Position numbers and translations under genes: made by a program. DNA of 64,000 bases from Rhynchopus sp. YZ270_cl-10 (lineage: Eukaryota), in the NCBI GenBank assembly GCA_964035575.1, contig OZ037841.1:1426001-1490000 (forward strand), read 5' to 3'. The notes below the pieces were generated by a model, which saw only the letters and a list, made by a program, of their open reading frames with translations, was not told the DNA's origin and made no database searches. This document shows positions 22,275-26,182 of this stretch, piece by piece; the stretch's first letter is position 1; every line of letters begins with the position of its first letter.

Positions 22275-25200
22275 ATGTTGCGTGCTACTACAAATGCAGT
22301 GCGCAGGCAGGTGTGCAAGGCACCGGGTGCTGTGCAAGGGGTGCAAGGCGTGCAGGCGACACAGACGGGGGCTCGCTTCTTTACGGAGACAGTGCCACTG
22401 CAGCAGCCCGCGAAGAAGGTATGTTGGGTGGAGGGTGGAGGGGTCGAGGACATTTTCTGTGTGGTGCGGTTTAATTACATAATCAATGACCACAGGTGAA
22501 GAAGGTGAAGGCGGCCAAAGCAGAGAAGGCAGAGAAGGCAGCACCCCAGGAGAAGAAGGAAGCGAAGAAGAAGAACTCCTCTTCCAAGGTCGCGGAGAAG
22601 GCTGTGGAGGCTGAGGAGAAGAAGGCTGCTGAAGAGAAGGCAGCTGCCGCTCAGGTTGCCGCCGAGAAGGCTGCTGAAGAGAAGGCTCTTGCCGCTAAGG
22701 CTGCTGGGAAGGCTGCTGCCGCTAAGGTTGCTGCTGCCGAGAAGAAGGTTGCCGACGAGGAGGCTGCTGCTAAGGTTACCGCTGAGGAGAAGGCTGCTGC
22801 CGACAAGGCTGCCGAGAAGAAGGCCCTTGCCGAGAAGATTGCTGCTGAGAGGAAGGCAGCTGCCAAGGTTGCTGCTGAGAAGAGGGCTGCTGAGGAGAAG
22901 GCTGCTGCCAAGGTTGCTGACGAGAAGAAGGCTGCCGAGAAAAAGGCGGCTGAGAAGAAGGCGGCTGAGGAGAAGGCTGCTGCCAAGGTTGCTGCCGAGA
23001 AGAAGGCTGCTGAGGAGAAGGCTGCTGCTGAGAAGAAGGCTGCTGAGGAGAAGGCTGCTGCCAAGGTTGCTGCTGAGAAGAAGGCAGCTGAAGAGAAGGC
23101 TCTTGCCGAGAAAAAGGCGGCTGAGGAGAAGGCAGCTGCCAAGGTTGCTGCCGAGAAGAAGGCTGCTGAGGAGAAGGCTGCTGAGGACAAGGCTGCTGCC
23201 AAGGTTGCTGCTGAGAAGAAGGCAGCTGAAGAGAAGGCTCTTGCCGAGAAAAAGGCGGCTGAGGAGAAGGCTGCTGCCAAGGTTGCAGCCGAGAAGAAGG
23301 CTGCTGAGGAGAAGGCTGCTGCCAAGGTTGCTGCTGAGAAGAAGGCAGCTGAAGAGAAGGCTGCTGCTGAGAAGAAGGCTGCTGAGGAGAAGGCAGCTGA
23401 GGAGAAGGCTGCTGCCAAGGTTGCTGCCGAGAAGAAGGCTGCTGAGGAGAAGGCTGCTGCTGAGAAGAAGGCTGCTGAGGAGAAGGCTGCTGCCAAGGTT
23501 GCAGCCGAGAAGAAGGCTGCTGAGGAGAAGGCTGCTGCCAAGGTTGCTGCTGAGAAGAAGGCAGCTGAAGAGAAGGCTGCTGCTGAGAAGAAGGCTGCCG
23601 AGAAGAAGGCTGCTGAGGAGAAGGCAGCTGAGGAGAAGGCTGCTGCCAAGGTTGCTGCTGAGAAGAAGGCAGCAGAAGAGAAGGCTCTTGCCGAGAAAAA
23701 GGCGGCTGAGGAGAAGGCTGCTGCCAAGGTTGCTGCTGAGAAGAAGGCAGCAGAAGAGAAGGCTCTTGCCGAGAAAAAGGCAGCTGAAGAGAAGGCTGCT
23801 GCTGCCAAGGTTGCTGCCGAGAAGAAGGCTGCTGAGGAGAAGGCTGCTGCCAAGGTTGCTGCTGAGAAGAAGGCAGCAGAAGAGAAGGCTCTTGCCGAGA
23901 AAAAGGCGGCTGAGGAGAAGGCTGCTGCCAAGGTTGCTGCCGAGAAGAAGGCTGCTGAGGAGAAGGCTGCTGCCAAGGTTGCTGCTGAGAAGAAGGCAGC
24001 AGAAGAGAAGGCTCTTGCCGAGAAAAAGGCAGCTGAAGAGAAGGCTGCTGCTGCCAAGGTTGCTGCCGAGAAGAAGGCTGCTGAGGAGAAGGCTGCTGCC
24101 AAGGTTGCTGCTGAGAAGAAGGCAGCAGAAGAGAAGGCTCTTGCCGAGAAAAAGGCGGCTGAGGAGAAGGCTGCTGCCAAGGTTGCTGCTGAGAAGAAGG
24201 CTGCTGAGGAGAAGGCTCTTGCCGAGAAGAAGGCGGCTGAGAAGAAGGCAGCTGCCAAGGTTGCTGCTGAGAAGAAGGCTGAAGAAAAGGAAGCTGCTGT
24301 TAAGGTTGCTGCCGAGCAGAAAGCTGCTGCTGAGTCCGCTGCCGCCATGGAGGTTGCGAAGTCACTGCAGCAGCATGAGGGAAGGAAGGTGGGACGCATT
24401 GTTCAGGTACATCCGCCCTCCCACCCCCACCCCACTTCCACGGATGTTAGTGCAGCAATTATATTAATTCCCATTGTGCCAATGCTCACTTGCTATACTA
24501 ACATTGCTCTCCAGACTCACACCACAAACATCGGTGGCAAAACGCTCCTTCGAGCTTTGAATCTCAAAAGTCACCCATGTTTTTCTCCACCGGTTGTAAT
24601 TAAGTACGTGCGATTCTCATCTCACAAACCTTTGTCCAGTATGCGATGCTGCACTCTTCACTTACTCAGATGCCCCACCACATGAGAAACGTTCTTCCCC
24701 CCAACCACCCACAGGTCATCGGTGCCGTCGTCGACGTCCACTTTGAGAGCGGTGTGCCACCTGTTCTGACTGCGTGCGAGGTTGTGAGACCTGGGGGGGA
24801 CAAGGTTACGCTTGAGATTGTTCAGCATCTTGACGGCAACACAGGACGTGCCATTGCTATGCAGACCACTGACATGCTTCGTCTGCAGGAGCCCGTCGTG
24901 GACACGGGGTCGCAGATCACGGTGCCTGTTGGGGAGAAGACGCTGGGACGCATTTTCAACGTGATGGGAGACGCGATTGACCAGCGTGGTGAGGTGACGT
25001 CGTCCGAGCGTCGCCCCATCCACGCGAAGGCGCCGACCCTGCAGCAGCAGTCTGGCGAAGATGCGGTGCTGACGACAGGCATCAAGGTGATCGACCTTAT
25101 CCTGCCCTACTGCAAGGGAGGCAAGATCGGTCTCTTCGGAGGAGCGGGAGTCGGCAAGACCGTCATCATCATGGAGCTTATCAACAACGTCGCAAAGGGG

Positions 25201-26182
25201 CACGGAGGGTTCTCTGTGTTTGCAGGTGTCGGAGAGCGCACCCGTGAGGGTACCGATCTGTACCTCGAGATGATGGAGTCTGGGGTATGTTTTTTTATCG
25301 ACAATCTTTATTTCCACTCCCCCACAGGTTATCGACCTTGACAACGAAAGCAAATGTGTTCTTGTGTACGGACAGATGAACGAGCCCCCGGGTGCCCGTG
25401 CCCGTGTTGCCCAGTCTGCCCTGACCATGGCGGAGTACTTCCGTGACGTTGAGGGCCAGGACGTGCTGCTCTTCATTGACAACATCTTCCGTTTCACCCA
25501 GGCCAACTCTGAGGTGTCTGCTCTGCTTGGTCGTATCCCTGCTGCTGTCGGATACCAGCCCACCCTTGCTGAGGATTTGGGTATGCTTCAGGAGCGTATC
25601 ACCTCCACGGTGAACGGCTCTATTACCTCGGTCCAGGCAGTTTACGTCCCTGCAGATGACATCACCGACCCTGCACCTGCAACAACATTCTCGCATTTGG
25701 ATGCCAACACTGTGCTGGACCGTTCCGTGGCGGAGGCTGGAATCTACCCTGCAGTTCATCCTTTGGAGTGTGCGTCGCGTATTATGGACCCTGATGTGCT
25801 GAGCAGCGAGCACTACAACGTGGCGCAGGACGTTGTGGAGATGCTCACGAAGTACAAGGAGCTGAAGGACATCATCGCGGTGCTTGGAATTGACGAGCTG
25901 TCGGAGGAGGACAAATTGGTTGTCGAGCGGGCGCGCAAGGTGACAAGCTTCCTCTCGCAGCCGTTCACCGTCGCAGAAGTGTTCACAGGAATGAAGGGAC
26001 ACTATGTCGATCTCCAAGACACCGTGGACGCCTTTGCCGGCATCCTAATGGGCACCTACGACAACATTCCGGAGCAAGCTTGGTACATGGTCGGAAACAT
26101 TGCCTCAGTCAAGGAAAAGCACAACAAAATCATTGAAGAGTCTATCAAAACGAAGGGCGCCCCTAAGGCAGGATCTGCATAA
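22275..26182 (+). CDS. ATP2: Mitochondrial ATP synthase F1 beta subunit with giant N-terminal Ala/Glu/Lys repeat; join(22275..22418,22496..24406,24715..25284,25328..26182), ~1159 aa
   Basis: Exon 1 is presequence-like ([12 protein letters not shown]...). Three phase-0 GT...CACAG introns (77, 308, 43 nt). Splicing rebuilds [15 protein letters not shown] and ESG|VIDL. Walker [26 protein letters not shown] and DELSEED are intact. Kinetoplastid-type residues: [25 protein letters not shown]. Confidence 0.9.
22600..24345 (+). repeat. Coding tandem repeat of [15 protein letters not shown] (45 nt) and [11 protein letters not shown] (33 nt) units within exon 2 of the beta subunit
   Basis: Visible periodic GCT/GAG/AAG array. 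A higher-order duplication with ~249-bp spacing (23780 versus 24029) suggests recent unequal crossing-over. Confidence 0.95.

Follow-up and report, generated by a model that had tools for sequence, protein, structure and literature searches.

A diplonemid F1-beta gene with a giant Ala/Lys/Glu insert predicted to form a long single alpha-helix

Few proteins are as strongly conserved as F1-beta. A gene of the marine diplonemid Rhynchopus sp. YZ270_cl-10 (contig OZ037841.1) raises the question of whether such a subunit can carry a very large appendage, and what the appendage might do. The window, that is, the whole 64-kb stretch of DNA analysed here, contains four phase-0 exons whose spliced translation yields an F1-beta of 1159 aa and 121.0 kDa. 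Between the predicted presequence and the catalytic core lies an insert of 625 aa that consists mainly of Ala, Lys and Glu. The observation of an F1-beta gene with a giant Ala/Lys/Glu insert was confirmed as real. The features are as follows:

22275..22418, plus strand: exon 1, 144 nt; predicted mitochondrial presequence (through about aa 36), followed by the first residues of the mature protein, with PAKK at the exon end (read, like intron 1, from the sequence only)
22419..22495, plus strand: intron 1, 77 nt, GT..CCACAG
22496..24406, plus strand: exon 2, 1911 nt; insert and first strand of the beta-barrel
22496..22651, plus strand: first part of exon 2; insert head (aa 49-100), irregular and rich in Lys
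22620..24329, plus strand: tandem repeat array, mostly 15-mers and 11-mers; predicted single alpha-helix
24330..24406, plus strand: last part of exon 2; final helix turns, Met666, QHEGRK and the initial beta-barrel strand (spliced contig 15 of run X5, no differences)
24407..24714, plus strand: intron 2, 308 nt (GT..AG skipped in X5; present in DNA contigs of runs X1, X3 and X4)
24715..25284, plus strand: exon 3, 570 nt; beta-barrel and P-loop segment of 14 residues (PF02874, PF00006, X5 contig)
25285..25327, plus strand: intron 3, 43 nt (GT..AG skipped in X5)
25328..26182, plus strand: exon 4, 855 nt; rest of the nucleotide-binding domain, DELSEED, C-terminal domain and stop (PF00006, PF22919; X5 contigs over 25328-25393 and from 25608)

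Re-translation gave the same exon 2 as an earlier note on this DNA, which had described 1911 nt with phase-0 GT/AG borders and an Ala/Glu/Lys repeat sharing its exon with the conserved fold. The coding frame of exon 2 is free of stop codons, whereas its two other frames contain 2 and 60, and its last 12 residues run into a 10-residue stretch of exon 3. Intron 1 must be removed, because the exon 1 frame hits a stop at 22496-22498. Its boundaries were inferred and its acceptor is a predicted one, with a single G among the 20 nt upstream of the CAG versus 7-8 for the five in-frame exonic CAGs (ending at 22549, 22654, 24319, 24370 and 24373). Pyrimidines account for 9 of these 20 nt, and for 16 and 17 of 20 at introns 2 and 3.

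The earlier note had also pointed to an in-frame CTGCAG near the end of exon 2 as an acceptor that would remove the repeat, and the CAG at 24368-24370 is indeed in frame. Contig 15 of X5, a single public run that was taken as RNA from its splicing alone, leaves out introns 2 and 3 with exact borders, has nothing covering the interior of intron 2, and reads through the CAGs ending at 24370 and 24373 without a mismatch or a loose end. It extends 78 nt beyond 24330 into the repeat, to 24252, which is the point where unique 31-mers end. At the same point the overhang is 78 nt in DNA contigs of X1 and X4 and 79 nt in X3, and these matching overhangs show that the RNA follows the genome into the repeat. 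At least the end of the repeat is joined to the enzyme core in spliced RNA, as had been expected, and splicing at 24370 as the main form is not supported, with the proviso that contigs drop rare isoforms. Of the stretch 22418-24715 for which an RNA check had been proposed, the contig covers the junction of repeat end and core, but not the exon 1-2 side: RNA cover of exon 2 begins at 24252, and exon 1 and 22496-24251 are known from DNA. The repeat length is taken from the assembly, since contigs built from short reads break off within the array.

The core itself is that of a conventional F1-beta. Exons 3 and 4 carry the beta-barrel, nucleotide-binding and C-terminal domains (PF02874, PF00006, PF22919), and the P-loop GGAGVGKT, the catalytic GERTRE and DELSEED are all present, in agreement with the earlier claim of intact catalytic motifs. 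The core differs at three columns that are invariant in aligned normal betas, none of them within these motifs. The protein of exons 3 and 4 is 85-88% identical to the Lacrimia and D. papillatum betas, and in a 40-row tree the core lies within the starred 13-row Diplonemidae-type clade (support 97/95), which bears out the earlier assignment to a diplonemid. The position in this clade, together with the spliceosomal introns, identifies a diplonemid host gene and not a bacterial one. Assembly into F1 and catalysis by the long beta are predicted. Normal euglenozoan betas (D. papillatum DIPPA_22100 and DIPPA_22045, T. brucei 8AP6, Euglena 6TDU) have the same three domains and catalytic motifs, but only 32-42 residues separate their presequence-end motif from the barrel, versus about 650 in the window protein. 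Euglenozoan genomes contain several beta genes each. No second beta gene was found by tblastn within the 64-kb window; further copies appear to exist in Rhynchopus sp. YZ270_cl-10, to which the DNA runs point via a 245-nt stretch only. The suggestion that each beta bears a rod was thus overstated.

The insert is dominated by three residues: exon 2 encodes 268 Ala, 163 Lys and 132 Glu among 637 residues, and in the insert Ala accounts for 43% and Lys plus Glu for 47%, with almost no Arg. The array contains 15 exact copies of one 15-mer, along with seven and three copies of two 11-mers. The 15 copies of the 15-mer are encoded by six distinct DNA forms, and 47 of the 58 base differences among 22 repeat units are at third codon positions. 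Of the distinct variant codons, 9 of 18 are silent, which is significant against an expectation of 21% (p 0.006) but not against one of 30% (p 0.06).

Lys and Glu are regularly spaced. Lys-to-Glu pairs at i+4 number 113 versus 33 +/- 4 in shuffles, and like charges at i+3 number 1 versus 67, although the shuffles ignore that the units are copies, so that there are few independent events and the z-scores overstate the evidence. The hydrophobic moment is 0.131 versus 0.201 +/- 0.014 in shuffles, and the apolar period is 5.15, not 3.5-3.7. An AlphaFold model of exon 2 has helix over aa 31-228 and 237-636 (pLDDT mostly 60-79, pTM 0.23), a result to be read with the fact that AlphaFold readily returns helices for Ala/Glu/Lys-type sequences; the Lys-rich head is modelled with low confidence and is partly non-helical. 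A coiled coil (heptad, hendecad or pentadecad), including a trimer of three arms, was considered because units of 11 and 15 residues occur, but no apolar peak at 3.5-3.75 was among the six strongest. Opposite charges at i+3/i+4 and the lack of a hydrophobic seam are the hallmarks of single alpha-helix (SAH) domains, and together with the long-helix folds predicted for this insert and for the Flectonema insert described below they fit a single alpha-helix and not a coiled coil. The insert is thus predicted to form one long single alpha-helix, in line with the helix proposed earlier. The persistence length of single alpha-helices is 15-22 nm. The previous figure of about 90 nm holds as a contour length but not as a reach, for which a mean of about 47-55 nm is calculated from this persistence length.

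The same design was found in a second diplonemid, where the earlier note had suggested looking for the extension. The Flectonema neradi transcript P0121 (EukProt EP01060 P034220) encodes 843 aa with a presequence, a Lys-rich head, an AEAEAKKK-type repeat and then the barrel, and Flectonema also has a normal 539-aa beta. The Rhynchopus and Flectonema proteins share presequence, Lys-rich head, Ala/Glu/Lys helical repeat and intact core, but the Flectonema unit has 8 residues, its insert comprises about 280 versus about 600 aa, and identity over exon 4 is 81%. A fixed ruler length is therefore not conserved. In the Flectonema insert, opposite charges at i+4 number 52 and 61 versus 19 each in shuffles, like charges at i+4 number 0 versus 38, the hydrophobic moment is below that of shuffles, and the AlphaFold model is a long helix. 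Six core states, including a loop deletion, are private to the window protein and P0121, versus 0-3 for seven normal betas, although long branches share states by chance; the two long cores have branches of 0.22 and 0.24+ versus a median of 0.067. The window protein and P0121/P0122 stand apart in free trees, but a joint clade is not rejected (p-AU 0.436, LG+G4 quick tree, 19 rows). The long Flectonema beta beside a normal one, like the further copies indicated by the DNA runs, fits the earlier proposal of a specialised paralogue.

Among the clusters examined, the long form occurs in one of six named diplonemid species, Flectonema neradi. The D. papillatum mitoproteome, as far as its available tables go, has two betas, both of normal length. 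Among the best 120 of 503 betas longer than 728 aa, no protein was more than 70% identical to the diplonemid-type query; P0121 was hidden there as a cluster member, and other long diplonemid forms may be hidden likewise. An exon 3 query against proteins longer than 333 aa gave no new diplonemid long form among the best 120 listed. Nine of 119 long proteins screened had an N-terminal part of more than 150 aa in which A+E+K or A+P+K exceeded 0.5. Only P0121 among these resembled the window protein (0.81), and many others were fused gene models. A D. papillatum protein of 1391 aa (P0130) was set aside, as it also looks like a fused gene model. Long A/E/K arrays do not seem to be a general habit of diplonemid mitochondria: five short motifs occurred 10 times in the available part of the D. 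papillatum mitoproteome supplement, and none of the 7 occurrences listed was a long A/E/K array.

Where would the protein be processed? Residues 1-36 have a net charge of +5 and no acidic residue, and the last 15 aa of exon 1 match the presequence end of the normal Flectonema beta at 8 of 15 positions (E 0.016). An R-x-F-S/T motif similar to the presequence ends of normal diplonemid betas lies before the insert. Ahead of the barrel, Arg occurs at positions 3, 10, 11, 34, 167, 178, 678 and 682 only. It is absent between 178 and 678, and between 28 and 370 in Flectonema, and therefore these stretches contain no usual processing-peptidase site.

We favour, with a probability of about 0.4, the reading that this is a transcribed diplonemid F1-beta, likely a specialised paralogue, whose 625-residue arm, predicted to be a single helix, likely remains part of the mature subunit and would serve as a semi-stiff spacer or tether reaching into the matrix from the top of F1. 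A matrix peptidase would cut near Arg34, ahead of the insert, with no later Arg site near the core, and the core would assemble into F1, probably alongside normal beta encoded by other gene copies. The arm would exit from the static crown and thus need not hinder rotation; F1 is reported to rotate still when fixed through N-terminal tags on beta. With a reach of about 50 nm, the bulk or the basic tip of the arm could keep F1 heads away from, or fasten them to, the opposite crista or the masses of DNA lying between cristae. Diplonemid cristae are reported to be long parallel lamellae with DNA aggregates between them, and the lamellar form to be general in the group. The restriction of the long form to one of six named diplonemids, although lamellar cristae are general, counts against the spacer or tether.

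The main rival to this spacer or tether paralogue is a neutral expansion: the insert would be translated and retained but jobless, a slippage-driven repeat at the free N-terminus of a redundant beta copy that selection merely keeps in frame, soluble and helical. Unit sequence and length that differ between the two species, the many identical DNA units that betray recent expansion, the long branches of both cores and the absence of the long form from five of the six named diplonemids make this a serious though somewhat unlikely alternative. It explains less well why two unrelated units both arrive at an i+4 salt-bridge geometry, why 63 kDa extra per subunit are made and imported, why the catalytic residues are kept, and why eight decapod proteins with long inserts at the same place cluster together. 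Alternatively, the insert could be cut off in the cytosol or the matrix, leaving a normal beta of 52-55 kDa (the part from QHEGRK onward has a computed mass of 52.4 kDa), and might aid import or act as a free peptide. In T. brucei, F1-alpha is reported to be cut at an internal site, probably before import (PMC13545225), and an internal F1-alpha cut is described for euglenozoans, which makes an unusual cut in beta possible; the Flectonema model offers an unstructured linker of about 22 aa between helix and barrel. Such cleavage is nevertheless rather improbable given the Arg-free stretches, the presequence-end motif ahead of the insert, and the finding that the only junction motif common to both proteins, G-x-K-V-G-R, is the barrel's own first strand.

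Binding of the arm along its length to mtDNA, in the manner of histone-H1-type proteins or the CAF-1 KER helix, would anchor ATP synthase to the nucleoid. Exon 2 matches the histone H1-like family HC2 with an E of 3e-14, but no single stretch passes alone; CAF-1 is reported to have a DNA-binding single helix (PMC10335832), and DNA aggregates do sit between diplonemid cristae. The net charge of the insert, however, is just +29 over 625 aa, which is not the strong positive charge of the Ala,Lys-rich DNA-binding class (PF07382). With a net charge of 0 to +5 per 50 aa (head aa 51-100 net +5), the rod is almost neutral, and for this reason mtDNA binding along it, raised in the earlier note, is weakly supported. 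The D. papillatum Ala/Lys-rich mitochondrial HMG proteins, in the available supplement rows of the mitoproteome, are almost free of Glu, and decapod inserts are acidic, so that we regard this option as very unlikely. Least probable of all is that the repeat is mostly spliced out, or reflects an assembly error or pseudogene, and that the gene in fact yields a normal beta. The CAGs at 24319, 24370 and 24373 are in frame, and the exon 1-2 junction and array length rest on assembly sequence; against this, the X5 contig passes 24370 and 24373 cleanly, its overhang matches the genomic path past 24319, the exonic CAGs are G-rich upstream, unlike real acceptors, and the Flectonema transcript is an independent full-length one of the same design.

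The shape of cristae is commonly attributed to the membrane part of ATP synthase and its dimer angle. Were the arm retained and active as a spacer or tether, one could directly test what sets the distance between stacked cristae. Since D. papillatum seems to possess normal betas only, the long gene could be introduced there and its arm shortened in steps. A neutral insert would still be a remarkable example of the growth that a core enzyme can tolerate, and a caution that such forms escape gene callers and short-read assemblies. No published description of a long-armed diplonemid F1-beta was found in a search of the literature outside subscription journals.

Long betas also occur outside the euglenozoans. 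Database models of 'beta-like' proteins from decapods (Penaeus, Panulirus, Eriocheir, Cherax, Palaemon and others) have an insert of 280-800 aa between presequence and barrel, and eight of them group together on a separate branch of the beta tree with inserts at the same place; a literature search aimed at them found no published description. Like the window protein they have a basic head and an Ala-rich repeat, but their inserts are, where examined, Pro-rich, acidic and without the i+4 salt-bridge pattern. A beta more than twice normal size in two diplonemid lineages, echoed in decapods, indicates that the crown of the mitochondrial enzyme can carry a very large appendage. A bolder and doubtful extension is that F1 heads of some diplonemids carry one to three single-helix arms of 30-55 nm whose basic tips set the lamellar crista gap or moor the enzyme to mtDNA, and that decapods reached a long-armed beta independently with a Pro-rich arm. 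On that view mitochondria would be shaped at the crown of F1 and not where the membrane dimers meet.

With regard to the helix itself, the insert is presumably closer to EAAAK-type linkers and TolA than to ER/K domains, from which it differs by 43% Ala, almost no Arg and a far greater length. It shares with ER/K single alpha-helix domains (PMC4183817) a helix rich in charged residues, i+3/i+4 salt bridges and no apolar seam.

Extensions of ATP synthase subunits are known from other systems. The Gli-beta of Mycoplasma mobile, a catalytic beta of a Type 2 F1-like ATPase, also has a long N-terminal extension leaving the crown; its 299 aa bind partners and link F1-like units (bioRxiv 10.1101/2024.06.11.597861). 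It belongs, however, to a bacterial gliding motor without peripheral stalk, its extension contains a small folded domain of helices for PGK binding instead of a repeat rod, and no shared origin is implied. The window gene is eukaryotic and intron-bearing, with unrelated neighbours and a repeat helix as insert, and was not assigned to this type. Drosophila Knon, a testis paralogue of subunit d that is longer by 532 aa, moves ATP synthase towards the monomeric state (PMC5364652). It is likewise an ATP synthase subunit paralogue with more than 500 extra residues, is tied to the inner shape of mitochondria, and a steric effect was proposed, but it is a peripheral-stalk subunit with a C-terminal extension near the membrane, acts on dimers and is tissue-specific in an animal.

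In chlorophyte algae, beta carries C-terminal extensions. The Acanthamoeba beta has one of 118 aa (PMC13632647). Both resemble the window insert as lineage-specific helical extensions of beta and are kept in the mature enzyme, but they are C-terminal and five times shorter, wrap alpha and touch the stalk.

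The F1-beta gene carrying the Ala/Lys/Glu repeat (the long beta gene) consists of four exons, all in phase 0:

22275-22418, + strand: exon 1
22496-24406, + strand: exon 2
24715-25284, + strand: exon 3
25328-26182, + strand: exon 4

The introns of 77, 308 and 43 nt each have GT..AG borders, and the spliced product comprises 1159 aa (121 kDa). An insert of 625 residues (268 Ala, 162 Lys, 131 Glu) separates aa 48 from the QHEGRK motif (aa 674). The tandem array spans 22620-24329, and its main units are one 15-mer and two 11-mers. The three F1-beta Pfam domains were found on exons 3 and 4, the set of catalytic motifs was complete, and the core deviated at only 3 columns that are invariant among the aligned normal betas. 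The gene as described in the earlier note, with its phase-0 borders of exon 2 and intact catalytic motifs, was borne out. In a 40-row tree, the core fell among Diplonemidae-type betas (97/95), adjoining Rhynchopus humris without firm support (87/95) and on a long branch (0.22).

A run search with 24330-26250 matched 11 public sequencing runs, none of them recorded as RNA. Five shared at least half of the words, and contigs of four of these best-matching runs (X1, X3, X4 and X5) were compared with the window. In X5, a single contig omitted introns 2 and 3 exactly and the interior of intron 2 lacked cover, so that X5 behaves as RNA. The spliced contig showed zero differences over 24330-24406, and therefore the in-frame CAGs ending at 24370 and 24373 are read through; the previously proposed acceptor at 24370, which would remove the repeat, was not used in this contig. 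It extended 78 bases further left, in agreement with the end of the unique 31-mers of the window (24252, 78 bases left of 24330) and with the left overhangs of the DNA contigs (78 bases for X1 and X4, 79 for X3). Because these overhangs, compared by length, coincide, the RNA most likely follows the genomic path beyond the CAG ending at 24319 into the repeat, and it is most likely only a break in the assembly graph that ends the contig. The RNA support stems from one run and spans the transition from repeat end to core, and rare short isoforms escape such contigs. With regard to the acceptor check suggested for 22418-24715, the repeat end was joined to the core in RNA, and the junction of exons 1 and 2 lies outside the RNA cover.

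Base differences among 22 repeat units were located at third codon positions in 47 of 58 cases. When each variant was counted once, 9 of 18 were silent, compared with 21% expected (p 0.006; p 0.06 at 30% expected), a codon pattern that suggests translation of the repeat. The long beta is a real, transcribed F1-beta that exceeds twice the normal size, and its core looks catalytically intact.

The end of exon 1 aligned with the presequence end of the normal Flectonema beta (8/15 identical, E 0.016), and normal diplonemid betas have 32-42 residues between the presequence-end motif and the barrel. For these reasons, the insert would represent an expansion within the beta gene and not a fusion with another gene; the repeat appears to have taken the place of the short linker and would lie past the probable cleavage point, in the mature part.

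The extension that the earlier note proposed to look for in diplonemid transcripts was found in a second genus. Cluster look-ups revealed a Flectonema neradi transcript (P0121, EukProt EP01060 P034220; 843 aa) with presequence, Lys-rich head, AEAEAKKK-type repeat and intact core. The same transcript also occurs as a shorter assembly of 595 aa, and the species has a normal beta of 539 aa as well. The clusters looked up for Lacrimia lanifica, D. japonicum, D. papillatum, R. humris and Namystynia karyoxenos contained normal forms only and no long beta; for the D. papillatum mitoproteome, the accessible text gives one beta of 539 aa and another of 538 aa (PMC12699882). Free trees placed the two long betas apart, and their joint clade was not rejected (p-AU 0.436). 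Six private core states were common to both, versus 0-3 for seven normal betas.

In the window insert, i+4 Lys-to-Glu pairs numbered 113 versus 33 in shuffles and i+3 like charges 1 versus 67, and in the Flectonema insert, built from another unit, i+4 like charges numbered 0 versus 38; these shuffles treat repeat units as independent although the units are copies, and the weight of the pattern is that two distinct units arrive at one geometry. The hydrophobic moment was under the shuffle level in both inserts. In structure predictions, exon 2 alone folded as a long helix (pLDDT 67, pTM 0.23), and P0121 with a 38-row alignment showed helices at 70-227 and 237-345, followed by a loose linker and the barrel. 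The predicted arm fits a single alpha-helix rather than a coiled coil, with the single alpha-helix domains of PMC4183817, as far as its accessible text describes them, as the reference type. In the window and Flectonema alike, the rod is near neutral and the head more basic. Single helices have a persistence length of 15-22 nm. With this value, the mean reach was 47-55 nm for the window insert and 29-32 nm for Flectonema; the rod of ~90 nm proposed earlier thus stands as contour length (90 nm) but not as mean reach.

X1 and X3 each contained one 245-nt contig over 25364-25608 with identical 7 differences from the window (97% DNA identity), at a depth ~2.5x that of its neighbours, which does not equal copy number; X4 contained part of it. 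Five differences are silent at third positions, the other two lie within one codon, and the flanking contigs stay separate. This variant points to additional beta copies in the organism, and gene conversion over this tract or a recent duplication would explain it; it may instead be an allele or derive from another organism. The search for a second beta gene yielded this stretch of 245 nt. The matching X4 contig changes to unrelated sequence past 25512.

We tentatively favor, with a probability of about 0.42, that the long beta is a specialised paralogue which would keep its arm after import and use it in the matrix as a spacer or tether. According to the accessible parts of the sources, the beta N-terminus begins the crown, the ring-steadying part, and F1 immobilised via beta N-terminal tags keeps rotating (PMC9447477); the Euglena OSCP rests on the crown (PMC6930080). 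Diplonemid cristae are described as long parallel lamellae with DNA aggregates in between (PMC10653844), which would offer such an arm something to span. However, this cristae type is general in diplonemids, yet the long beta is patchy and the arm length is not conserved between long betas, and therefore a tolerated passenger without a job is a close rival, although by itself rather unlikely.

The usual mitochondrial processing peptidase sites have Arg at -2 or -3. Arg is absent between residues 178 and 678 of the long beta and between 28 and 370 of P0121, leaving this peptidase without a second site near the core, and cleavage of the insert is improbable. A different protease could possibly cut, because euglenozoans cleave F1-alpha internally, as the accessible text of PMC13545225 states. 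Although a single helix of CAF-1 binds DNA (PMC10335832, accessible part), the near-neutral charge counts against binding along the rod, so that the earlier idea of an mtDNA binder, in this form, has very little in its favor. Still harder to credit is that the repeat is spliced out or an artefact, in view of the read-through of the CAGs in X5.

Oversized ATP synthase subunits are already known. In the available portions of the reports, Mycoplasma Gli-beta has its own 299-aa N-terminal extension, which binds PGK and connects F1-like units (10.1101/2024.06.11.597861), Drosophila Knon is a testis subunit d with 532 added aa that moves the enzyme toward monomers (PMC5364652), and the Acanthamoeba beta has a C-terminal helical extension of 118 aa, described as exceeding those of all other amoebozoans by a wide margin (PMC13632647). 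The literature searched contained no mitochondrial beta with a helical repeat arm of several hundred residues and no description of the diplonemid or decapod long betas; subscription journals and supplements may contain one.

A search for betas >728 aa revealed, among the matches listed, decapod proteins with an insert of 280-800 aa at the equivalent place. This insert follows the presequence and is Ala/Pro/Glu-rich (P0151, P0161-P0164, P0167-P0169, P0172, P0182, P0184, P0188, P0190, P0192, P0194-P0207 in part); that of Penaeus is acidic and Pro-rich. In a quick 22-row tree, eight decapod long betas clustered (support 94), away from the diplonemid long forms. The Eriocheir sinensis protein has dozens of annotated isoforms at ~10-aa steps, and the names given to some decapod entries are 'uncharacterized' or 'ice-structuring glycoprotein-like'. 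JGI contigs of 2.6-2.9 kb encode animal-type betas whose inserts, 325-380 aa long, are acidic Ala/Glu/Val repeats (P0221-P0223, P0183). Moth and sandfly beta-like proteins (P0231, P0254, P0004), which we take to be possibly an insect testis paralogue, have non-repetitive N-terminal extensions of 170-340 aa. The 1391-aa EukProt D. papillatum model P0130, in which beta is joined to a part that we label MutL/PMS2-like from its motifs, is probably a fused gene model.

Further features of the window, the three genes being neighbours unrelated to ATP synthase, are:

18410-18527: 9-nt tandem repeat, near-perfect, 13 copies
28017-28661: ribosomal protein L14e gene
29059-29691: small U-box protein gene
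42969-44735: sialate O-acetylesterase-family gene

Other window genes encode WD40, ankyrin, kinase, MIT and ion-channel proteins. Two tandem genes at 56195-61416 have BspA-type leucine-rich repeats with a 75-nt period; the first is apparently split across two frames near 56940, and the N-terminal end of the second shows a weak ubiquitin-like domain.
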